Shown: positions 219 to 17,436 of the stretch, one piece after another
Position numbering within the stretch: the stretch's first letter is position 1
Layout: each line of letters begins with the position of its first letter
NCBI GenBank assembly: GCA_038740895.1
Contig: JAVYLK010000006.1
Span: 1-24,000, forward strand
DNA from: Candidatus Caldarchaeum sp.
GTDB taxonomy: Archaea > Thermoproteota > Nitrososphaeria_A > Caldarchaeales > Caldarchaeaceae
DNA length: 24,000 nucleotides
Direction: 5' to 3'
Position numbers and translations under genes: made by a program
The notes under the pieces: model-generated
What the model was told of the DNA's origin: nothing
The model's database searches: none
The model's input: the letters and a program-made list of their open reading frames with translations, nothing else

Positions 219-321
219 GGGGGTGTAGCCGAGCAAGGCCAAGGCGTCGGGCTCCAGATCACGTCCCGGCTGGTCATGAGGCGGTACCCGAAGACCGTGG
301 GTTCAAGTCCCACCACCCCCA
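219..321 (+). tRNA. tRNA-Trp (anticodon CCA) with one canonical-position intron
   Basis: Cloverleaf read by eye. Acceptor GGGGGTG (219-225) pairs with CACCCCC (314-320), discriminator A321. Anticodon stem TCGGG (247-251)/CCCGA (287-291), anticodon CCA at 254-256. A 28-nt insert at 258-285 (boundary ambiguous by 1 nt) sits at the 37/38 position. Variable AGACC; T arm GTGGG-TTCAAGT-CCCAC. Mature length 75; CCA not encoded. Confidence 0.85.
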
Positions 322-7138: not shown

Positions 7139-9520
7139 ATGGCGGTCTCCAAGCTTTTTGGAGCCCGTGTAAAAAGGCGTGAAGACCCTCGGCTTCTTAC
7201 GGGGATGGGAAAGTTCACGGCAGACCTGAGACCTCCCAACTGTCTCCACGCTGTGTTCGTCAGGAGCAGCAAGGCTCATGCCAAGATCCGCAGGGTAAAC
7301 GTGGACGAGGCTTACCGGGTGGAGGGGGTTGTGAAGGTTTTGACGGGGGCTGATCTGTCTGACGGGCTTGCTCCTATTCCGTGCGCATGGCTCATTCCTA
7401 ACTCGGGTCTCAAAGTCCCACGGTACACCGCTCTAGCGGTTGACAGAGTGAGGTTCGTGGGAGAGCCTTTCGCAGTCGTCGTAGCGGATTCTTACTACGC
7501 AGCCGTTGATGCTGCCCAGCTAGTCTCTCTCGAGTACGGATCGATGGATGCAGTGGTAAACCCTGAGGAAGCCGTGAAGCCAGGAGCTCCGCAGCTGTAC
7601 GACGACATCCCAAACAACACGGCGTTCACATGGCGGGCTTCAGGCGGGGAGATGGATGAGGCGTTTTCCCAAGCAGACCACGTCGTCAAGACCAAGATGG
7701 TGAACAGCAGGCTTCAGCCGACGGCGCTTGAGACACGTGGAGCCGTCGCCGAATACAACAGGCTTACGGGCGAGGCGACCGTTTACATGACTTCGCAGAA
7801 CCCCCATGTTCACAGGCTTCTCCTCTCCATCATCACCGGCATTCCGGAGTCGAAGCTTAGGGTCGTAGCTCCTGACGTGGGCGGAGGGTTCGGAAGCAAG
7901 ATTCAGTGCTACCCTGCCGAGGCTGTTGTGCTGCATCTCGCCAGAATGACGGGAAGACCCGTGAAGTGGGTAGAGACAAGGGAGGAGAACCTAAAGTCAA
8001 CCATACACGGCAGGGACCATGTCCAGTACGTCGAGGCAGCAGCTACGAAGAACGGCGAGGTTCTCGGGCTCAGGGTGAAGTCTTACGCCAACCTGGGGGC
8101 CTACCTATCGACAGCAGCCCCCGGAGTACCCACGATTCTTTTCGGAACGATGCTCAGCGGCCCCTACCGAATTAAGGCCGTCTCAGCCGAGGTCGTCGGC
8201 GTTCTGACGAACACGGCCCCCGTCGACGCATACAGGGGTGCCGGCAGGCCTGAGGCCACCTACTTGCTCGAGCGTGTCATGGACCTAGTTGCGAGAAGAG
8301 TCGGGCTCGACCCGGCTGAAGTGCGTTCACGCAACTTCATACCTTCGAACATGTTTCCTTACACAGCCCATCCAGCTGGGCTGACGTACGACAGCGGAGA
8401 CTACCACAAGGCGTTTAATCGAGCTTTGGAGCTGGCGGATTACTGGAATATGAGAAGGAGGCAGGCGGAGCTTAGGAGTAAAGGCAGGCTAGTTGGGTTG
8501 GGTATTTCAAGCTACGTTGAGATATGCGGGCTTGGACCCTCTTCCGTCGCCAGGGGGACCGGGTTCGGGCTCGGCCTCTGGGAGAGTGCAGTTGTGAGGG
8601 TGCATCCGACTGGGAAGGTTAAGGTTTACACGGGGGCAAGCCCCCACGGACAGGGCGAGGAGACGACGCTGGCTCAAGTCGTAGCCGACCAGCTTCAGAT
8701 ACCTTTTGAAGACGTCGAGATAATCCACGGGGACACCGAGATGACTCCATTCGGTCTCGGAACTTACGGCAGCAGGACGACGCCCGTGGCGGGCGGAGCC
8801 ATAGCTACGGCGTGCCATAAAATCCTGTCGAAGGCGAAGAAGGTGGCGGCCCACATGCTGGAGGCGAGGGAGGAGGACATCGAGTACGAGAGCGGCAGGT
8901 TTTACGTCAAGGATGCGCAGGACAGAGCGAAATCGTTTGCGGAGGTGGCCTACGCATGCTACGCAGCAGGTTCGAACGAGCTTCCGAGCGGGCTTGAGCC
9001 GGGGCTGGAGGCCAGCGTGTTCTACGACCCGCCCAACTTCACTTTCCCGTTCGGAACTCATGTCTGTCTCACGGAGGTCGACCCTGAGACGGGCAGAGTC
9101 TCAATCTTGAAGTATGTTGCAGTTGATGACTGCGGAAGAAGGATAAACCCGATGATAGTCGAGGGCCAGATACACGGAGGAATAGCTCAGGGAGTTGCTC
9201 AAGCTCTGTACGAGGAGGCTGTGTACGACACGGCGGGAAACCTGCTCACAGCCAGCTTGAACGACTACCTCGTCCCCTCAGCCTGTGAAGTACCCAGCAT
9301 CATCTCCGACGAAACCATCACACCATCGCCGTCAAACCCTCTCGGCGTGAAAGGGGTAGGGGAGACGGGAACCATCGCTTCAACTCCAGCCGTCGTCAAC
9401 TCGGTGGTCGACGCCCTGTCGCATTTAGGCGTCCTCCACATAGACATGCCGCTGACGCATGAGAAGGTGCTGAATGCTTTGAACCCTAGACGGCATCACA
9501 GCGGGCCCGGTGGGACTTGA
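7139..9520 (+). CDS. Xanthine dehydrogenase/aerobic CO dehydrogenase family molybdopterin-binding large subunit (form II CoxL-like)
   Basis: 793 codons. N-terminus GARVKRREDPRLLTGMGKFTADL. Active-site loop AYRGAGR (nt 8228-8248) is the form-II type, not the form-I AYRCSFR. GHGQGEETTLAQVVAD and DDCGRRINPMIVEGQIHGG are typical of the family. Confidence 0.85.
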   Translation: MAVSKLFGARVKRREDPRLLTGMGKFTADLRPPNCLHAVFVRSSKAHAKIRRVNVDEAYRVEGVVKVLTGADLSDGLAPIPCAWLIPNSGLKVPRYTALAVDRVRFVGEPFAVVVADSYYAAVDAAQLVSLEYGSMDAVVNPEEAVKPGAPQLYDDIPNNTAFTWRASGGEMDEAFSQADHVVKTKMVNSRLQPTALETRGAVAEYNRLTGEATVYMTSQNPHVHRLLLSIITGIPESKLRVVAPDVGGGFGSKIQCYPAEAVVLHLARMTGRPVKWVETREENLKSTIHGRDHVQYVEAAATKNGEVLGLRVKSYANLGAYLSTAAPGVPTILFGTMLSGPYRIKAVSAEVVGVLTNTAPVDAYRGAGRPEATYLLERVMDLVARRVGLDPAEVRSRNFIPSNMFPYTAHPAGLTYDSGDYHKAFNRALELADYWNMRRRQAELRSKGRLVGLGISSYVEICGLGPSSVARGTGFGLGLWESAVVRVHPTGKVKVYTGASPHGQGEETTLAQVVADQLQIPFEDVEIIHGDTEMTPFGLGTYGSRTTPVAGGAIATACHKILSKAKKVAAHMLEAREEDIEYESGRFYVKDAQDRAKSFAEVAYACYAAGSNELPSGLEPGLEASVFYDPPNFTFPFGTHVCLTEVDPETGRVSILKYVAVDDCGRRINPMIVEGQIHGGIAQGVAQALYEEAVYDTAGNLLTASLNDYLVPSACEVPSIISDETITPSPSNPLGVKGVGETGTIASTPAVVNSVVDALSHLGVLHIDMPLTHEKVLNALNPRRHHSGPGGT

Positions 9521-9604
9521 ACCCACGGCCTCCGGCTCCGCAGGCCGGCGCTGTAGGAACAGGTGCTGACCAAGTTCTCTCTATCCATTCTGAGCTACGG
9601 GCCC
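9502..9604 (-). tRNA. tRNA-Arg (anticodon GCG) with a non-canonical intron in the D arm
   Basis: Reverse complement reads GGGCCCG-TA-GCTC-AGAATGGATA-GAG[28-nt insert]C-G-CCGGC-CTGCGGA-GCCGG-AGGCC-GTGGG-TTCAAGT-CCCAC-CGGGCCC-G. The insert (9551-9578, boundary ambiguous by 1-2 nt) interrupts the 3' strand of the D stem. Mature length 75. Confidence 0.8.
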
Positions 9605-9625: not shown

Positions 9626-9633
9626 TTTATAAA
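9626..9633 (-). promoter_or_regulatory. TATA box for tRNA-Arg(GCG)
   Basis: TTTATAAA (palindromic) is centred ~26 nt upstream of the tRNA 5' end at 9604. Confidence 0.55.
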
Positions 9634-9730: not shown

Positions 9731-10510
9731 TTATCTGTAGGCCCAGCCGACGAGGCTTTTCTCAAGCAGCGCGAAGACGAGGAAAAGGCTTATCCCTAAG
9801 AAGGATATGACCAGCAGGCCTGCGAAGACCAGCGGGACGTCAAACCTTGAGCTGGCCGCTATCATCAAGTATCCAGTGCCTTCGTTGCTCGCAACGGTTT
9901 CGGATATGACTGCGCCCACGAACGCCAGCGTCGAAGCTACCTTGAGAGAGCCGAAGAAGTAGGGCAGGGAACGCGGTATGCCTATTTTGACGAATATCTG
10001 GCTCTTCGACGCTCCTAGCGAACGGAGGACGTCCCTTATCTCTGGCTCGATTGTCGCTAAAGCGATGGCCACGTTGACAACAATCGGGAAGAAAGAGATG
10101 AGGAAAGCTGTTAGTATGGCCGGCACCTTGCCGACGCCGAGCCATATTACTAGGATGGGGACTATCGCCACCTTCGGAATCGTGTTGAAAGCTACTAGTA
10201 GTGGGTAGACAGCCCGGTAGACCACGATTGAGTATCCGACGGCTAGGCCGAGGCCGAGGCCGAAGACTATCGACATGCCGAAGCCTATCAAGGTTGCTTC
10301 GAGCGTGGCGTACGAGTGCTTGATGATTATGTCGAGGTTTTTTTCAAGCGAGTAGATCACCCTCGTGGGGGGTGGTAGGATGAACTCCGGTATGTTGAGG
10401 GCAATAGTGACAGCTTCCCAGCCGACGAAAAACCCGACGAAGACAAGCACTGGGAGACCATATTCCTTGAGGGCAGAAGACACAAGCGACGAGACCGGCT
10501 GCTTAGCCAT
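9731..10510 (-). CDS. ABC transporter permease (NitT/TauT, SsuC/TauC-like)
   Basis: 259 codons with 6 hydrophobic helices. Binding-protein-dependent transport motif region: EPEIRDVLRSLGASKSQIFVKIGIPRSLPYF. The ATG directly abuts the stop of the upstream ATPase gene. Confidence 0.85.
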   Translation of the reverse strand: MAKQPVSSLVSSALKEYGLPVLVFVGFFVGWEAVTIALNIPEFILPPPTRVIYSLEKNLDIIIKHSYATLEATLIGFGMSIVFGLGLGLAVGYSIVVYRAVYPLLVAFNTIPKVAIVPILVIWLGVGKVPAILTAFLISFFPIVVNVAIALATIEPEIRDVLRSLGASKSQIFVKIGIPRSLPYFFGSLKVASTLAFVGAVISETVASNEGTGYLMIAASSRFDVPLVFAGLLVISFLGISLFLVFALLEKSLVGWAYR

Positions 10511-11296
10511 TCACTTCACCTGTATCATTTCCCTGAGGCTGTGAGTCATGTTCACAAACCTCTCCTCGTAGCATATGTCTAGCTCCCGAGGTCTTTCGAA
10601 CCTAGGCTCAACCACGCCGATGATTTTACCAGGTCTCCTGCTCATGACGTACACCTTGTCCGACAGGTAGAGGGACTCCCTGAGGTCGTGGGTGACCATC
10701 ACGACCGTGCATCTTGTCCGGAGCCATAGGCTCTGAAGAACGTTCCAGAGCTCTTCACGGGTAAACAGGTCGAGGGCGCCGAACGGCTCGTCGAGCAGGA
10801 GTATTGCTGGGTCGTGGATTAGCGCTCTGCAGAGCGAGACCCGCTGCTGCATCCCGCCAGATAGCTCCCACGGCTTTCTTTCTGAGAACCCTTCCAGCCC
10901 TACGGTCTTGAGCAGGTTTAGAGCCTTCTCAACGTATTCTTTTTTCTTGTCGTTAAACCTGGACTTGTGGGGTTCGACGACCTCGAGAGGAAGCAGCACG
11001 TTCTGGAGCACTGTTCTCCAAGGGAGCAGCACAGGGTTTTGGAAAGCCATGCCAACGATCGAGAGCGGCTTCTCGACGAGGTTGTTGTTGACGTAAACTC
11101 CACCCTCGGTGGGCTTGATCAAGCCTGCTATGAGCTTCAACACGGTCGTCTTCCCACAGCCGCTGGGCCCGACGATGGAGGTGAAGCTGCCCTCCTCCAC
11201 ACGGAGGCTTACTTTCTCAAGAGCCTTGACCGAGACGAAGGTCCTAAACCCCGACTTCGAGAGATACTCCAGAGAGACGTTCTTTAACTCTATCAA
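10511..11296 (-). CDS. ABC transporter ATP-binding protein (NitT/TauT, SsuB/TauB-like)
   Basis: 261 codons with a TTG start. Walker A GPSGCGKTT, signature LSGGMQQRVSLCRAL, Walker B ILLLDEPFGALD, H-loop VTHD. Confidence 0.9.
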   Translation of the reverse strand: MIELKNVSLEYLSKSGFRTFVSVKALEKVSLRVEEGSFTSIVGPSGCGKTTVLKLIAGLIKPTEGGVYVNNNLVEKPLSIVGMAFQNPVLLPWRTVLQNVLLPLEVVEPHKSRFNDKKKEYVEKALNLLKTVGLEGFSERKPWELSGGMQQRVSLCRALIHDPAILLLDEPFGALDLFTREELWNVLQSLWLRTRCTVVMVTHDLRESLYLSDKVYVMSRRPGKIIGVVEPRFERPRELDICYEERFVNMTHSLREMIQVK

Positions 11297-11323
11297 GCCG
11301 ACATCATAAAAATAGGGAGGTTT

Positions 11324-12370
11324 TTAAATGGTTCTCTGTTCCTTGGGCGGCAGGAACCTGTCGGTGAACACTTCGTCCGGCGAGGGCGTCCTAGGCAGGT
11401 TGAAAGCCTCGACCACTGATTTGATCGTCCTCTCCAGCCTGGCCCTGTCAACAGCTCCCAGCCCGTTCCTACGAACCTCCTCCGTCACGATGTTGTCCTT
11501 CAACGCCAGCTTGAGCCTCTCGAGCTCGACGTTCCTGTCAACCGTCGGGTCTTTCCGCTTGACAAAGTCGGCTCCAACGTCCGGGTTTGCTATCACTTCT
11601 TTCAACGCCTTGTTGAAAGCCCTGATGAACCCAGCGACTGCTTCGGGGTTGGACTGGATGAAGTCCTTCCGAGCGACGATGGCGTTGCCGTAAAGCTCGA
11701 CGCCGAAGTCGGTGTACTTGAAAGCCGTTATTCTGTCAGGGTCGACTTTCAGGGCTACAAGGTTGAGGTAGCCTGTGTAGTAGAAGCCGGTGATGGCGTC
11801 AACCTCTCCCTGTACGAGCGAAGGCTCCCTGAGAGCTGGCGACATGCTGACCCACTGCACTTTGGAGGCATCTATGCCCGTTGCCTTGGCGAACACGGGG
11901 AACAGCCTTCGCGGAGCATCTCCTTCGGGAGCGCCTATCTTCTTCCCTTCAAGGGCCTTGGGGTTCGTTATGCCTTTGTCCTTTAGAGTTATCACCGAGT
12001 AGGGTGGGTTGTTGAGAACCATGTAGACGGCGACAAGCTCCTGCCCGGGGTTTTTGACGTTGAACTCTATCAAGGCGTCGATGCTGCCGTACCCCATCTG
12101 GTAAGCCCCTGAAGCAACCTTGGTAATTGTGTCGGCTGAGCCGTAGCCTCTGTCCATGATGACCGCCAACCCCTCTTCGACGAAGTAGCCCTTCTCCAGA
12201 GCAACGATGAAAGGCGCCTGAGGCCCTTGCACAGCCCAGTCGAGCACGAACTTCACGGAGACTATTCTAGGGGCTTGAGTCGGCATAACGACGGGGCTCA
12301 GGAAAATTCCAGCAACCAACCCGACAACTAGGAAGACGCCGGCTGTGGCCAAAAGTTTTCCCGACACCAT
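11324..12370 (-). CDS. ABC transporter substrate-binding protein (NMT1/THI5-like, SsuA/TauA family), membrane-anchored
   Basis: 348 codons. An N-terminal anchor helix is followed by VKFVLDWAVQGPQAPFIVALEKGYFVEEGLAV...GYGSADTITKVASGAYQMGYG, the NMT1/SsuA pattern. Confidence 0.8.
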   Translation of the reverse strand: MVSGKLLATAGVFLVVGLVAGIFLSPVVMPTQAPRIVSVKFVLDWAVQGPQAPFIVALEKGYFVEEGLAVIMDRGYGSADTITKVASGAYQMGYGSIDALIEFNVKNPGQELVAVYMVLNNPPYSVITLKDKGITNPKALEGKKIGAPEGDAPRRLFPVFAKATGIDASKVQWVSMSPALREPSLVQGEVDAITGFYYTGYLNLVALKVDPDRITAFKYTDFGVELYGNAIVARKDFIQSNPEAVAGFIRAFNKALKEVIANPDVGADFVKRKDPTVDRNVELERLKLALKDNIVTEEVRRNGLGAVDRARLERTIKSVVEAFNLPRTPSPDEVFTDRFLPPKEQRTI

Positions 12371-12406
12371 GCAAATAAACGTGTTCTTGAGGGTTATTAA
12401 ATATTT

Positions 12407-12760
12407 CTAGAAGCTGACCACGTAGTATCCTTTCTCGGCGGCTTCAACCACCACTGTAGTCGAGTCGTCTGCGATTACTAGGTTTCTGTCGATTTTATCA
12501 TCTAGGTTGTAGGCCTTGAGGTTTCCTGCGCAGGCCGCCACATATGCCCGGGCCTCGTTCAAGGCTGTTAGATAGTCTTTGACCAGCTTGTAGTGGGGGT
12601 TATGCGGGTCGAGTAGATGGACGCCGGGGCCTAGGAATAGCATTCTGACCTCTGCCATCCTCTCCCTCGCCATGTTTCTTGCGATGCGTAAACCCTGCCT
12701 AGCCTTATCAATCTCCTCGGGGCCTGAGAGAATTATGAACAGAACTTTCAAGCCGGCCAA
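12407..12760 (-). CDS. DsrE/DsrF-like family protein
   Basis: 117 codons. The TTG start at 12760 lies 3 nt after the leuS stop. LKVLFIILSGPEEIDKARQGLRIARNMA...VRMLFLGPGVHLL fits the DsrE-like fold pattern, and a conserved-looking Cys sits in YVAACAGN. Confidence 0.55.
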   Translation of the reverse strand: MAGLKVLFIILSGPEEIDKARQGLRIARNMARERMAEVRMLFLGPGVHLLDPHNPHYKLVKDYLTALNEARAYVAACAGNLKAYNLDDKIDRNLVIADDSTTVVVEAAEKGYYVVSF

Positions 12761-12763
12761 TTT

Positions 12764-15733
12764 CTATGACCTCGAGACGTAAACCGCTGGCTTGAGCGGA
12801 ATGGATTGGGAGGCTTTCAAGGCCTCGGCTGTGCCCGACGCATCATCCTCGTTGAGCACGACGACGTCTACACGAATCTCCTGCTTGATTAGCTCGGCAG
12901 CCTGAACCCATATGTTTTCCTCAACCCTGAGAAGCTTAGCCAAAGCTTCCTTCCGGTCCCCAGCCCCCAAGACTTTAGAGTATTCTCCGCACAGGTCTTC
13001 GACAGCCTTCAGCCTCTCCACAACTCTCGTCATGAGACGCTGGGCAACAGCCAGCTTATCACGGTGATGCTCCTTGAGCCATCCAAATGCATCGCTTGGC
13101 GAGGACCTTAGCAGGCGCTCAGCGAGACTAACCTTCCAGCCTGCGGCCTTAAAGATCTTTATCACAGCAGGCTTCCCCTTGACCACCTTCAGTATCTCCC
13201 TAACGTCGGCCATCAGCTCTCTCAGAACATCTTCGTGGACGAGTGAGAAAACACTGTCCTCGTCTACTCCTGTTTCTGGCCATCGGTGTGTTGACGCATA
13301 CCCCTCCCCACGTAGATTTCGCCAAGCCTCCTCCGCTGCGAAGGGTGCGAAGGGTGAGAGCAGTAGTGTCCAGACCTTGACGAACTTCTTCCCTGCTTCG
13401 TTTATTCTGCCGTTGTTTCTCCGGAGCCACCACCTCCATATGTTGAGCATGCCGTAGACAGCCTCGTTGCAAGCCGTTCTTGTCTTCATCTTTTCCAAGG
13501 CGTTCTCGACATTCTTCAGCACCATGCTCGTCGACACGCTGAGCCATTTGTCCGCAGGCCCCTCCCGGGCTTCAACATCCTGCTTGCACCTGTCAACTAT
13601 CGACAGGAAGTTTTGGATGAACTGTTCAGCCTCCTCAACGTTCTTCAAACGCCAGTCGGGGTCGTCCAGCTCTTCAGCTCCCAGCAGCAAGGCCAGGCGG
13701 GTTGCGTCTGCGCCGTGTCTCATGACAGCCGTCTTCAAGGTAATGAAGTTCCCCCTACTCTTCGACATCTTCTCGCCCTCGACCGAGACCATGCCGTTAA
13801 CGCTGATGCTCCGGGGCCAGTGTCTTCTCTCGAATATCCCGGCGTGGTGGAATAGGTAGAAGGTAAGGTGGTTAGGGACTAGGTCTTTGCCTGAAACGCG
13901 AAGGTCGACGCCGTACCAGTATGTGAATTCGTCCCTCATTTTCTTTAGCAGGTTTAGGTCGATGCCGTGTCTTTCGGCTATCTGGGCTGGGTCTCCTTCT
14001 CCTAGAAAGACGTAGTCGAGGACTTCAGGCGTGATTCTCGAAGCTACTTCGCGATGCTTGTTGAGTATGCTGCTTACTGTGTACAGAGCCGGGTAGATGG
14101 TTGAGTCGCTCAGCGTCTCGATCTTCCACGAGGGGTCCCATGGAAGCGGAGTTCCCAATCCTGTCTTGCGTGTGCAGGCCCAGTCCTTGAGCCAGTCTAC
14201 GACGTTGAAGAACCATGTCCTGACGGCTTCGGGGTATATCCCCATCTCGGCTAGGTGAGTCCTGACCTTCTCCTTCCATTCACGGTTTGAAAACTTGAGA
14301 AACCACTGGTCTTCCACGATCTTGACTATGCACTCGTCCCCAGACCTGCAAACCACCTTTCCAGACAGGTCGTAGAAGAGCTGCCCCCTACCCTCTGTCA
14401 TGAGTTTCTGCTGTACTTCCTTCCTAGCCTGCGAGACTGGAAGACCTTTGTACTCCCCAGCGTACATCACACCTGTGTGGAATTCTTTCGAGTAAATCTC
14501 CCTAGTTGCTTCATCCAGCCTCTCGTCAAGCTGGCTAGTTATCTTCATCTTCTCCACGATCTCGACGGCTGGAAACTCTCCGTAGCCCTCAACCGACACC
14601 ACCTTGACAGGCTTCAAGCTGTCTAGGCATGAAGGGTTCAAACCGTACTGCGAAAGAGCTTGGGGGGCTTGAGCCAGTTCTCGAAGTGCTACGTAGTCGT
14701 AGGGGGCGTGGGCGGGGACGCTGTAGACAACTCCCGTGCCCATGGACGGGTCTACGAACGGAGCTGGGAGTATGACCATCTCCCTGCCTGTTAGAGGAGC
14801 CCTAGCGTATCTCCCAATAAGCTGCCGGGCTGAAACCGTGTCGACTACCGAGACATCCTGCCACTGCTCCACGAACTTGTTGAAAGCCTCTCGGCTAACC
14901 AGAAACCTCACCCCGTTCTTTTCAAACACTTGATAGACTGCGTCGGGGTTGACCCAGAGGTTTGTAGCTCCGTACAGCGTCTCAGGCCTTAGCGTTGCAG
15001 CGACTATGTTCACGCCGTCCATGTCGAAAAACACTAGAGTAAACTCCTCAGGGTAAATCCCCTCCCCACGCAGCCGGTCGTGGTCTCCCGTTGCGCTCTG
15101 GCATCTTGGACACCAGACGACGGGGTGGCGGCCCTTGGAGACAAGACCTTTTCTTGATAAAACGCTGTACTGCCAGTTGATGAAGTTGCTGTAGTATGGG
15201 TGGAGGCTCGTTGTGTAGAATTCTCTCGTCCAGTCGACCGACCATCCTATAGCGTCGACCACTTGCCTGTTCTCGGCTGTGTAGTAGGCGCATATGAACT
15301 CGGGGTTCTCAAAGTATTCGAGAAGGTCTTCACGAACACCGTCGATCTCTACTAGCATTTTTCTTATGGCTTGGTCTCCTCGCCGCAGCCGCTCGCTCGT
15401 CCCAGCCACCGCCTCTCCCGTCCAGTGCCACGCCCACGGAAAAAGGACGTTGTACCCCTTCATCCGCTTATAACGGGCTATCACATCGCCCCGAGTGAAG
15501 GTGAAGCCGTGGCCTAGGTGGAGTGGGCCGTTTTGGTAGGAGTAGGGGACGCAGATGAAGAATTTAGGCCTAGAATTATCAGGCTCGGCTTCGAAGAGTC
15601 TAGCAGCCTTCCACTCGGCCGACCAGCTTGCTTCGTAAGCTTTCGACGAAGCAATCCTAGACCTAGCTCCAAGCATGAAGCCTAGGCTAACTAACTCCTC
15701 AGGCCTGCGCGTCAACCTGTCTCCGAATGACAA
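12764..15733 (-). CDS. leuS: Leucine--tRNA ligase (archaeal type)
   Basis: 989-codon ORF. HIGH motif (HLGHGFTF) and KMSKS are present. Blocks matching archaeal LeuRS as I remember it: FPWAWHWTGEAV, DWTREFYTTSL, ATLRPETLYG, LSDSTIY, GKDLVPNHLTF and a C-terminal IPLKPAVYV. The ORF-track start is TTG 15733. ATG 15676 (MLGARSRIASSKAYEASWSAEW...) fits the usual N-terminus better. Confidence 0.95.
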   Translation of the reverse strand: MSFGDRLTRRPEELVSLGFMLGARSRIASSKAYEASWSAEWKAARLFEAEPDNSRPKFFICVPYSYQNGPLHLGHGFTFTRGDVIARYKRMKGYNVLFPWAWHWTGEAVAGTSERLRRGDQAIRKMLVEIDGVREDLLEYFENPEFICAYYTAENRQVVDAIGWSVDWTREFYTTSLHPYYSNFINWQYSVLSRKGLVSKGRHPVVWCPRCQSATGDHDRLRGEGIYPEEFTLVFFDMDGVNIVAATLRPETLYGATNLWVNPDAVYQVFEKNGVRFLVSREAFNKFVEQWQDVSVVDTVSARQLIGRYARAPLTGREMVILPAPFVDPSMGTGVVYSVPAHAPYDYVALRELAQAPQALSQYGLNPSCLDSLKPVKVVSVEGYGEFPAVEIVEKMKITSQLDERLDEATREIYSKEFHTGVMYAGEYKGLPVSQARKEVQQKLMTEGRGQLFYDLSGKVVCRSGDECIVKIVEDQWFLKFSNREWKEKVRTHLAEMGIYPEAVRTWFFNVVDWLKDWACTRKTGLGTPLPWDPSWKIETLSDSTIYPALYTVSSILNKHREVASRITPEVLDYVFLGEGDPAQIAERHGIDLNLLKKMRDEFTYWYGVDLRVSGKDLVPNHLTFYLFHHAGIFERRHWPRSISVNGMVSVEGEKMSKSRGNFITLKTAVMRHGADATRLALLLGAEELDDPDWRLKNVEEAEQFIQNFLSIVDRCKQDVEAREGPADKWLSVSTSMVLKNVENALEKMKTRTACNEAVYGMLNIWRWWLRRNNGRINEAGKKFVKVWTLLLSPFAPFAAEEAWRNLRGEGYASTHRWPETGVDEDSVFSLVHEDVLRELMADVREILKVVKGKPAVIKIFKAAGWKVSLAERLLRSSPSDAFGWLKEHHRDKLAVAQRLMTRVVERLKAVEDLCGEYSKVLGAGDRKEALAKLLRVEENIWVQAAELIKQEIRVDVVVLNEDDASGTAEALKASQSIPLKPAVYVSRS

Positions 15734-15745
15734 ATGGTGGTTAAT

Positions 15746-16324
15746 TTATGTTATGAACTGCCCTCCCTCGACGTCCGGCATCTCTCTCTTCAGACGCTGC
15801 GCCGCTATCTCCGAAGCCTCCTTGAGAATAGCTTCAGCCTCCGGGTCGGAGACGCTGTACCCAGTAACTGTGTCAGACACAGTTCCCACGCTGACTGAAA
15901 GGTCGTCTAGAAGGTCTTGGACTCCTCTAAGACCGTGGGATATCTCGGGCATCACGCCTCCGACGTCTTTCTGTACAGCCATGACCACTGCGGCTACAGG
16001 TCCGATTACCTTCTTCACCTCGTTGTAGTCTTTGACGGCTTCAAGCCTAAGTACAACTCCCTCGAGGGAGGCTTGGCTTCTTACGGTGGCGTGCATCATC
16101 TTCCTCAGCTGGGCCAGCTCATTGGCGTAGACGGCGGCTCTCTCGTTGTCCTTCTCCATCTTGGCCCGGACTACTTGGTTGAATATCTCCCTACCCCTCA
16201 TCTGCATCGAGCGTGCTTTAGAGTCCATCCTGTTCTGGATAGTCATAAGCCTAGTTATGATCTCGGTCATCTTCTCATCGAACGGCGGCTTTGGCGGTTG
16301 TTTTTTGCGGAAGAATCTTAGCAT
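15746..16324 (-). CDS. ESCRT-III/Snf7 superfamily-like coiled-coil protein (tentative)
   Basis: 192 codons with an ATG start. Basic N-terminus MLRFFRKKQPPKPP. The helical hairpin region is rich in K/R (ARSMQMRGREIFNQVVRAKMEKDNERAAVYANELAQLRKMMH...LEGVVLRLEAVKDY). The C-terminal half is acidic and ends in an amphipathic helix (DPEAEAILKEASEIAAQRLKRE). The layout resembles CHMP/Vps24-type proteins. Confidence 0.45.
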   Translation of the reverse strand: MLRFFRKKQPPKPPFDEKMTEIITRLMTIQNRMDSKARSMQMRGREIFNQVVRAKMEKDNERAAVYANELAQLRKMMHATVRSQASLEGVVLRLEAVKDYNEVKKVIGPVAAVVMAVQKDVGGVMPEISHGLRGVQDLLDDLSVSVGTVSDTVTGYSVSDPEAEAILKEASEIAAQRLKREMPDVEGGQFIT

Positions 16325-16433
16325 CTGTCTCGGCGTACGCCCCGGCTGATGAGTAAAAAGGTTATCGTGAGCATCTTGGATTGATGTTGTGCGGGTATTA
16401 TCCCGGAATGTTCTCGAAAAATAAGAATGGGGT

Positions 16434-16994
16434 TTAGGTTTTGCTCCGCCACGTCAGCAGGTAGGCGAGTCCTCCGAGCAGCACTCCAGCTGCTAGAACG
16501 AAGATGAATGCAGCTATCCAGGTTGGATAGCCCAGCGGTATTCCGTAGAATATGTTGACGTGCACTTGGCCCGCATTCCACCCACGTCCTCCAACCTCGA
16601 CCGGAAGCATGGCAGCCCCTCCCAGATAGCCGCCAATCATCATCATCCACGTAGCTCCTACGACGCCGACGTTCATCAATATGAGGTGGAGCCATGCCAA
16701 GGTGTTTGCAACACCCTTGAAAGGCTTGCCTAGGACGTTTTCGATGTAGTGGTAGAAAAGGGCTGTCACCGCTACACCCATCACCCCGACAATCAAGTAT
16801 GTCGTGTACCCTACTGTGAACCAGTTGCCGGCGCTTCCGAAGGCGATGACCCTGCTGAACTCAGGCCTCATGAACCCTAGCTGCCCTATCACCCAGAACA
16901 ACGTCAGCCCTGTCGCAAGAGCGCCCTGCACGATCGCAGCCGATATGAACCTAGAAGCCCACTTTGAAACCAAAACTTTCTGGGACACGTCCAA
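16434..16994 (-). CDS. Hypothetical polytopic membrane protein (about 5 TM helices)
   Basis: 186 codons with a TTG (16994) or GTG (16988) start. Consistently hydrophobic segments, and a TATA-like TTATTAAATAATT at ~17014-17026 upstream. I recognise no family. Confidence 0.5.
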   Translation of the reverse strand: MDVSQKVLVSKWASRFISAAIVQGALATGLTLFWVIGQLGFMRPEFSRVIAFGSAGNWFTVGYTTYLIVGVMGVAVTALFYHYIENVLGKPFKGVANTLAWLHLILMNVGVVGATWMMMIGGYLGGAAMLPVEVGGRGWNAGQVHVNIFYGIPLGYPTWIAAFIFVLAAGVLLGGLAYLLTWRSKT

Positions 16995-17077: not shown

Positions 17078-17086
17078 TATTTATTA
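17078..17086 (+). promoter_or_regulatory. TATA box for tRNA-Arg(UCU)
   Basis: TATTTATTA is centred ~28 nt upstream of the tRNA 5' end (17110). Confidence 0.5.
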
Positions 17087-17109: not shown

Positions 17110-17240
17110 GGGCCCGTAGCTCAGAATGGATAGAGAGGGTCGTGGCTGTAGACCCCTAGAATACCGGCCTTCTAAGTCGGGGGTCGTGAGCACGGGGCTG
17201 GAAAGCCTCTGCCGACAGGGTTCAAGTCCCACCGGGCCCG
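17110..17240 (+). tRNA. tRNA-Arg (anticodon UCU) with two non-canonical introns (D arm and T stem)
   Basis: Reads GGGCCCG-TA-GCTC-AGAATGGATA-GAG[26 nt, 17136-17161]T-A-CCGGC-CTTCTAA-GTCGG-GGGTC-GTG[30 nt, 17189-17218]GG-TTCAAGT-CCCAC-CGGGCCC-G. Anticodon TCT is at 17171-17173. The cloverleaf closes only if both inserts are removed. The gene is 131 nt and the mature tRNA 75 nt. Boundaries are ambiguous by 1-2 nt. Confidence 0.75.
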
Positions 17241-17333: not shown

Positions 17334-17361
17334 CCTTAGTAGCCTATAAGAGCGGCGACAA

Positions 17362-17436
17362 GCCCTGGTAGCTCAGCCCGGTTAGAGCGGCCGCCTCGTA
17401 AGCGGCAGGTCGAGGGTTCAAAGCCCTCCCAGGGCT
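17362..17436 (+). tRNA. tRNA-Thr (anticodon CGU), intronless
   Basis: GCCCTGG-TA-GCTC-AGCCCGGTTA-GAGC-G-GCCGC-CTCGTAA-GCGGC-AGGTC-GAGGG-TTCAAAG-CCCTC-CCAGGGC-T. Length 75 nt. T-runs follow at 17444-17463. Confidence 0.95.

Follow-up and report, generated by a model that had tools for sequence, protein, structure and literature searches.

Intron-bearing tRNA-Arg genes of a Caldarchaeum genome and replacement of their 5′ parts among relatives

The entry and movement of non-canonical introns in archaeal tRNA genes proceed by a mechanism described as "still unknown" (PMC4090602), and the arrival of the intron DNA is likewise treated as unknown in a 2026 Asgard preprint (bioRxiv 10.64898/2026.10.13.758758). 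The closest described case is the tRNA-Thr(GGU) gene of Caldarchaeum subterraneum, for which a published model combines the gain of an intron at position 24/25 with an orphan 5′ fragment and an insertion, followed by homologous recombination (Sugahara et al. 2012, PMC3293823); archaeal tRNA genes are also known as integration sites and synteny breakpoints, e.g. SSV1 attP in tRNA-Arg and the pNOB8-type integrases (Chan et al. 2011, PMC3218864). Here we analyze a stretch of 24,000 nucleotides, positions 1–24000 of contig C6 (hereafter the window), from a Caldarchaeum genome, G000, which is a 65-contig bin of 1.67 Mb with 54% G+C. The organism is an aigarchaeote and lies outside the Thermoproteales. 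The window contains two divergent tRNA-Arg genes, with GCG and UCU anticodons, each of which carries an intron at 24/25 in the D arm. They are composed as follows, in window coordinates.

9502–9604 (−), tRNA-Arg(GCG) gene, 103 nt, 75 nt when spliced; Rfam RF00005 at 56.3 bits; called tRNA-Arg(gcg) by ARAGORN once spliced
9604–9579 (−), GCG exon 1, 26 nt
9551–9578 (−), GCG D-arm intron, 28 nt, at 24/25; by sequence alone the junction slides by up to 2 nt
9550–9502 (−), GCG exon 2, 49 nt
9627–9633 (−), putative promoter TTTATAA (TATA-like), 23–29 nt upstream of the GCG gene, conserved in genome G006
17080–17086 (+), putative promoter TTTATTA (TATA-like), 24–30 nt upstream of the UCU gene, conserved in genomes G002 and G006
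17110–17240 (+), tRNA-Arg(UCU) gene, 131 nt; spliced to 75 nt and then called tRNA-Arg(tct)
17110–17135 (+), UCU exon 1, 26 nt
17136–17161 (+), UCU D-arm intron, 26 nt, at 24/25
17162–17188 (+), UCU exon 2, 27 nt
17189–17218 (+), UCU T-arm intron, 30 nt, at 51/52 (or 50/51)
17219–17240 (+), UCU exon 3, 22 nt

Three more genes complete the G000 set.

C4:58352–58446, tRNA-Arg(UCG), with an intron at 24/25
C6:43080–43171, tRNA-Arg(CCG), with a 15-nt intron at 24/25, outside the window
C50:1195–1269, tRNA-Arg(CCU), without introns

After splicing, each of the five is called tRNA-Arg by ARAGORN, at 75–77 nt, and both window loci are thus predicted from their sequence to be working genes of a five-member tRNA-Arg set. 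The whole is probably best explained if these are functional intron-bearing Arg genes in which the 5′ exon, the 24/25 intron and the upstream DNA form a replaceable module, and if the block between the two window genes has been flipped. The window pair alone adds little, being made up of ordinary intron-bearing isoacceptors with generic outer arms; the genus provides natural before-and-after alleles, in which the 3′ border of the intron is a recombination breakpoint and which are accompanied by orphans, shared leaders and swapped flanks, so that a model built on recombination at a single tRNA-Thr gene becomes testable over a five-gene family.

Sister alleles with and without the 24/25 intron

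From 13 Caldarchaeum genomes, 55 Arg genes were recovered and parsed, 24 with a D-arm intron and 31 without. At four loci, sister alleles with and without the intron can be compared (G000/G006 CCG, G004/G007 GCG, G003/G004 UCU and G003/G004 UCG). The allele homology breaks at the intron in all four pairs, as the Sugahara model demands: it resumes no more than 1 base from the first post-intron base, and the 5′ exon has been replaced together with 139–643 nt, or more than 2 kb, of upstream DNA. The CCG gene of G000 is one of these four cases; intronless sister alleles are not known for the window GCG and UCU genes. Upstream of the CCG gene lies a 643-nt insert (C6:43172–43814) which occurs only in G000 and G002, with no second copy in the G000 genome or in the loci compared other than those of G002. 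The insert may encode a small membrane protein.

The presence of the intron goes along with the type of 5′ exon. All 24 D-intron genes have the exon GCT[C/T]...AGAG, as opposed to 4 of the 31 intronless genes, the other 27 having D stems GCGC, GCCT or GCCC. The derived 5′ exon type is confined to genes with a 24/25 intron and to the CCG genes of G001, G008, G009 and G012.

Intron presence was mapped on a tree of leucyl-tRNA synthetase (LeuRS). The tree consists of clade A (G005,(G006,(G000,G002))), its sister clade B (G003,(G004,G007)) and clade C (G001,G011,(G008,(G012,G009))), to which the four genomes with the derived CCG exon belong, followed by the outgroups G014/G017 and next G013/G016. 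Five genomes of outgroup genera (G013–G017) were included, and negatives there cover the Arg genes recovered. Arg genes were parsed by hand, because ARAGORN missed the UCU gene of the window, both with and without its intron mode, and gave others a wrong identity (in G000, Arg(cct) for GCG, Asn for CCG, Ser for UCG and Gly for tRNA-Pro(CGG)); the parses were then checked by in-silico splicing and ARAGORN. Rfam recovers the GCG gene of the window and misses the two-intron UCU gene, and since both programs miss or mislabel intron-bearing genes, the tRNA complements of such genome bins are undercounted. For the flanks we relied on reference-based and ORF-family (open reading frame) synteny, which replaced both single-linkage flank clustering, where 50 loci were lumped, and a nucleotide-level flank family, which merged unrelated upstream regions.

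In clade B, remnants of the old 5′ parts are still in place. G003, G004 and G007 retain orphan 5′ fragments upstream of their new genes, which end near position 29 at a recurrent CG/AACG junction, after which come about 40–200 nt of inserted DNA; at one clade B locus, two orphans are nested. A 3.7-kb island in G007 (L281, G007:C5, 2378–6125) interrupts an orphan 5′ fragment of tRNA-Arg(CCU), whereas G003 lacks it at the corresponding place; according to Pfam, the island codes for a fusion of an N6/N4 DNA methylase with a DCD-like domain and for a BsaWI-like restriction endonuclease. A leader of about 150 nt is common to genes with D3 and D4 introns that have UCU, UCG, CCG and GCG anticodons and reside at different loci. 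Three of the D3-intron genes, L057 in G003, L065 in G004 and L061 in G007, are nearly identical, although located at different loci and endowed with UCG, GCG and CCG anticodons, respectively: in the mature tRNA, base 34 alone separates the copy in G003 from that in G004 (T vs G), and the G007 copy (C34) shows two further differences in the mature sequence. These genes are candidates for an anticodon shift or for patchy gene conversion.

T-arm introns behave differently from those in the D arm. The T-arm introns of the CCU and UCU genes in G011 are identical at 29 of 30 positions, and the one in the G012 CCG gene matches the CCU introns of G009 and G008 at 27/30 positions, vs 24/30 for the CCG intron of G009, so that T-arm introns do move between paralogues. 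In the UCU genes of clade C, however, the presence or absence of this intron is a clean indel with both flanks kept, and therefore the module-replacement picture does not cover it.

The suggestion in the original prediction that introns and exon modules have been exchanged between paralogues is thus supported at the genus level, by the breakpoints in 4/4 pairs, the orphans, the leader and intron shared across anticodons and the 29/30 match of T-arm introns. For the window pair it is reached indirectly and is plausible because of the analogy with clade B, the derived exon that both genes have in common, the flipped block which they enclose and the event at the G000 CCG gene.

A few further sequences with partial resemblance to these genes were encountered. 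In G011 (L258, C27, about 5785), a 35-nt 5′ half of an Arg gene, which breaks off in the anticodon loop, is found at the Snf7 end of the LeuRS block described below, and directly 3′ of the CCU gene of the same genome (L052) there is an orphan copy of the T arm and 3′ end that includes the last 4 intron bases. The tRNA-Pro(CGG) gene of G000 (C3:32594–32698) has a 30-nt intron at 24/25, followed by T25, which resembles the D4 Arg introns of clade B (AGA.ATA...TATTTCCT..TT). About 24 metagenome contigs (within L287–L318) from another hot-spring lineage contain a tRNA gene with Arg-like ends, in which there seem to be two inserts, one of 18 nt at the D-arm site and another close to the anticodon loop.

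Outer exons and splicing junctions of the window genes

The resemblance which first drew attention to the two window genes was confirmed by direct reading: they are identical at the 5′ end over 26 exon nt and the AG that follows, and at the 3′ end over 23 nt and one flanking C, and gene parsing places both D-arm introns at 24/25. The second UCU intron had been thought to mark the edge of the identity, but this did not hold, as identity resumes at C48 of the mature tRNA, 4 nt before the T-arm intron site, and the T-arm intron therefore lies inside the shared block.

Similar identity is found well beyond this pair. Pairwise comparisons among the five G000 Arg genes give 19–22 identical positions out of 22 at the 5′ end and 23–24 out of 24 at the 3′ end, and the exact 3′ 23-mer is present in 4–5 genes of each of the 13 genus genomes, whether or not they bear introns. 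Other isoacceptors of G000 are comparable: Thr(UGU)/Thr(CGU) and Glu(UUC)/Glu(CUC) are identical at 22/22 and 24/24 terminal positions, and the Ser and Leu isoacceptors at 24/24 positions of the 3′ end. The outer-end identity of the window pair is homology, not chance, yet it is generic rather than pair-specific. The original prediction had named generic outer-arm identity combined with unrelated introns as the outcome that would speak against it, and this is largely what we find. The identity has two layers, one consisting of the acceptor, D and T arms common to all Arg isoacceptors and the other of the exact 5′ exon (A9, D stem GCTC..GAG), which is the derived type.

The D-arm introns follow a single junction scheme in 24/24 cases across the genus, with exon [A/T][T/C]AG facing intron CT[A/G]N, and a hairpin between two bulges, A23 G24/A and N N/N25 (the stroke marks the splice junction). 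The strands covary, in that exon T is matched by intron A and exon C by intron G, with a T-G wobble in three cases, the 24 introns amounting to about three independent families. In the GCG gene, ATAG pairs with CTAC over 3 bp, the bulges are AG/A and AG/C, and the inner hairpin is formed by GAAC and GTTC; in the UCU gene, ATAG pairs with CTAG, the bulges are AG/A and AA/T, and the hairpin is GGGTC with GACCC. The base preceding T25 in the UCU gene varies (A in G000, T in G002, C in G006), as fits a bulge base, and since the exon after this intron starts with T25, the mature tRNA has a G10-U25 pair. The identical UCU gene is present in G002, G006 and one metagenome contig. The local minimum-energy fold of D-arm introns favours another register than the motif parse, and for this reason the modelled D-arm junction is classed as a relaxed form of the bulge-helix-bulge motif, with 3 bp and one mismatch.

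The T-arm introns, 19/19 in the genus, have GTCG facing CGAC, CGAT or CGGC, with bulges TG/A (TG/T in one case) and AG/G. In the minimum-energy fold of the UCU T-arm intron (−17.3 kcal/mol), a 4-bp GUCG:CGAC helix is combined with a 3-nt first bulge and a 9-bp hairpin closed by a GGAA loop. No outer exon-exon helix was found by reading the sequence at this intron, and the 51/52 junction as modelled comes close to a canonical bulge-helix-bulge in its central helix, both bulges and intron hairpin. G000 encodes two ORFs with the EndA catalytic domain PF01974 (97.5 and 60.4 bits), located at C1:113178–113429 and C26:7306–7560, which fit a broad-specificity two-subunit splicing endonuclease. The short introns of both window genes would be excised by the archaeal splicing endonuclease at these bulge-helix-bulge-type junctions.

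The ends of the two D-arm introns are indeed shared, as had been noted (A, G ... CTA[G/C] plus 2 nt), and are positions fixed by the motif: the third bulge base, the first hairpin pair and the strand that pairs with exon TAG. The interiors are unrelated, with z = −0.1 for GCG vs UCU, as for shuffled sequence, and the similarity test for the UCU and UCG introns of G000 was not significant. The window D-arm introns are matched by orthologous introns alone (G002, G006, G005), with z = 6.9 in G006 and z = 2.3 in G005 for the GCG intron. A provisional "D2 family" of introns was dropped, as its grouping rested on the constrained ends only.

Probable origin of the introns and of the flipped LeuRS block

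The two window genes are inverted repeats that bound a conserved core block.

9731–16994 (−), conserved core block, assigned by Pfam; 7.5 kb between the divergent Arg genes, with seven core genes: ABC permease, ABC ATPase, NMT1-type binding protein, DsrE-like protein, LeuRS (12764–15733), Snf7-family protein and a 186-aa protein
17361–17436 (+), tRNA-Thr(CGU), 121 nt downstream of the UCU gene

Collinearity of the block is kept in G006, G007, G009 and G012, but in G000 and G006, as compared with all other clades, it is flipped relative to the tRNA bodies. A divergent Arg pair is already present in the outgroup G013, in the arrangement CCU(−)-Snf7-LeuRS-UCU(+). At the Snf7 end, clade A has UCU, clade B has CCG, clade C has GCG and G013 has CCU; at the permease end, UCU is found in clades B and C, as opposed to GCG in clade A (G000, G006), and in the outgroups G013 and G014 UCU lies on the C-terminal side of LeuRS, the counterpart of the permease end. 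The UCU gene remains followed by tRNA-Thr(CGU) in G000 as well as in clade B, with a gap of 6 nt in the latter. Most likely, the two inverted Arg genes recombined through their 5′ parts and thereby flipped the 7.5-kb block in this lineage, and a single inversion would be the simplest reading. The single-inversion reading draws on the UCU side only, because other clades do not share the outer flank of the GCG gene. Downstream of UCU, G002 and G006 differ from G000, which indicates further breaks at tRNA 3′ ends, and other downstream blocks also adjoin different isoacceptors in different clades.

The module explanation would account for the introns and the block together. The 5′ exon would form one replaceable module with both the 24/25 intron and the proximal upstream DNA, brought in by intragenic recombination, either integration-like or as paralogue gene conversion with the shared exons as homology arms; homology to the old allele would then start again at the 3′ border of the intron, and recombination between the 5′ parts of the two window genes would flip the block. 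The D-arm introns of the window may have arrived by the same route, although for this pair we infer the co-transfer of exon and intron rather than see it, because clade A is without orphans, shared leaders and similar introns. A further step, which we put forward tentatively and consider somewhat doubtful, is that the 24/25 intron itself is the junction left when a module of promoter, 5′ exon and spacer recombines into any Arg gene; entry into any of them by gene conversion is conceivable because the five isoacceptors share their outer exons. The old 5′ part would pair with an orphan or exon on one side and positions 25–73 would pair on the other, and homing of the module would drag flanks, flip intervening DNA and permit anticodon shifts. 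If true, such module homing would explain in concrete terms, at the level of DNA, how tRNA introns are transposed in archaea.

Several observations weigh against replacement by modules, or at least against extending it to the window. No orphans were found within 2 kb upstream of clade A Arg genes, no leader is shared among the GCG, UCU and UCG genes of clade A, and no mutual similarity is detectable among their three D-arm introns. Pfam revealed no integrase in the 3.7-kb G007 insert, and none was found beside any orphan. The exon-plus-intron start pattern had 0 matches in viral contigs, and its 32 matches in metagenome contigs were whole genes or contig-end truncations, with no free element among them. 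The link between D-arm introns and the GCTY exon could partly reflect the needs of the splicing motif. The outer flank of the GCG gene, as already mentioned, offers no conserved neighbour. It should also be kept in mind that the genomes throughout are metagenome bins, one of which, G011, has six Arg genes and is possibly mixed. To these may be added that G000 holds no orphan copy of the 5′ exon elsewhere in its genome.

The alternative that survives best, while in our opinion improbable, is that unrelated introns entered a permissive 24/25 site separately, the exon identity being due to selection and the splicing motif, so that no module moved in the pair. It would be in line with the G000 introns of GCG, UCU and UCG having interiors no more alike than shuffled sequence, with the generic nature of outer-arm identity and with the lack of orphans and shared leaders in clade A, and the same site is also used in tRNA-Pro(CGG) of G000 and in tRNA-Thr(GGU) (PMC3293823). 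It does not, however, explain why the bulge bases 23–24 and base 9, which are unpaired in the motif, change together with intron presence, nor why the upstream DNA changes in every testable sister pair, including that of the G000 CCG gene.

Much less credible is an ancient intron, present in the ancestral Arg gene before the isoacceptor split, inherited vertically and lost many times, as one option of the original prediction would have it. The same position and junction scheme in four of the five G000 Arg genes could be expected from such an ancestor, but the 24/25 intron is absent from the Arg genes recovered from G013–G017 and from G001, G008, G009 and G012, and its presence in the remaining genus genomes is patchy. 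G004 and G007, with nearly identical LeuRS proteins, differ in which Arg genes hold a D-arm intron and in which intron it is, and this difference, together with the patchwork, makes vertical inheritance untenable. In addition, the interiors are unrelated, and the intronless orthologues differ both in the D stem and in the DNA upstream, a difference that precise loss of an intron would not leave behind. An artefact of assembly or binning, with the identical ends resulting from collapsed repeats or chimeric contigs, can be practically discounted, since in spite of the 65-contig state of the bin and the odd sixth gene on C45 (see below), the same pair, introns and flipped block are found on a 608-kb contig of G006, and identical genes occur in G002 and in independent metagenome contigs.

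Some neighbouring and additional loci are listed here for completeness. An ORF for the large subunit of a CoxL-like molybdopterin enzyme (Pfam; window 7139–9520, +) overlaps the 3′ end of the GCG gene in antisense by 19 nt; in G006 it is inverted relative to the tRNA, which places a rearrangement breakpoint at the 3′ end of the GCG gene. The sixth Arg gene, a divergent intronless Arg(UCU) at G000 C45:5625–5697, was seen in 0/30 relatives and is either a binning contaminant or mobile-element cargo. Two tRNA-Trp(CCA) genes, at window 219–321 (+) and at G000 C38:210–310, have the same exons and differing introns in the anticodon-loop region, and represent either strain heterogeneity in the bin or a true duplicate.

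Comparison with known systems

Anticodon shifts, or tRNA gene remolding, are known from mitochondria and eukaryotes. The nearly identical D3 genes of G003, G004 and G007 with UCG, GCG and CCG anticodons, which belong to relatives and not to the window, recall this process, except that patchy gene conversion would serve as an alternative to point mutation of the anticodon.

As in the archaeal cases compiled in PMC3218864, synteny breaks exactly at tRNA genes, partial tRNA copies are found and foreign DNA lies adjacent to them. Unlike in those cases, the flanks are exchanged among paralogous Arg genes, with one neighbour being next to a different isoacceptor in each clade, which points to paralogue recombination as well as to integration.

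The transposed introns of Fujishima 2010 (Mol Biol Evol 27:2233), as far as they are portrayed in PMC4033280, PMC4090602 and bioRxiv 10.64898/2026.10.13.758758, are near-identical introns at the same non-canonical position in tRNAs with different anticodons. The likeness to that portrayal holds in sister genomes, for the D3/D4 introns, which occur across four anticodons, and for the T-arm introns, with the 29/30 match in G011; the introns of the window pair share the position in different tRNAs and are dissimilar (z = −0.1). The phylum, Aigarchaeota, also sets the present case apart from the introns so portrayed. Their mechanism is given as unknown in the reviews, whereas here allele pairs place the breakpoints.

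The greatest similarity is to the tRNA-Thr(GGU) gene of Sugahara et al. (2012), which comes from the same genus and has its intron at the same 24/25 position. In the Arg genes of the relatives, too, an orphan copy of the old 5′ part forms a direct repeat upstream, foreign upstream DNA accompanies the new 5′ part and its intron, and later homologous recombination is invoked. The differences are that the window's own genes have no orphan, that no recombinase gene was found between orphan and gene, where that model expects one, the inserts being about 40–200 nt in length or the 3.7-kb restriction-modification island, and that a whole five-member isoacceptor family is involved, within which the module appears to spread between paralogues with swaps of flanks. 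The case is therefore a fresh example of a known phenomenon, in the very genus where it was first modelled, and its added value lies in the allele pairs that place the breakpoints.

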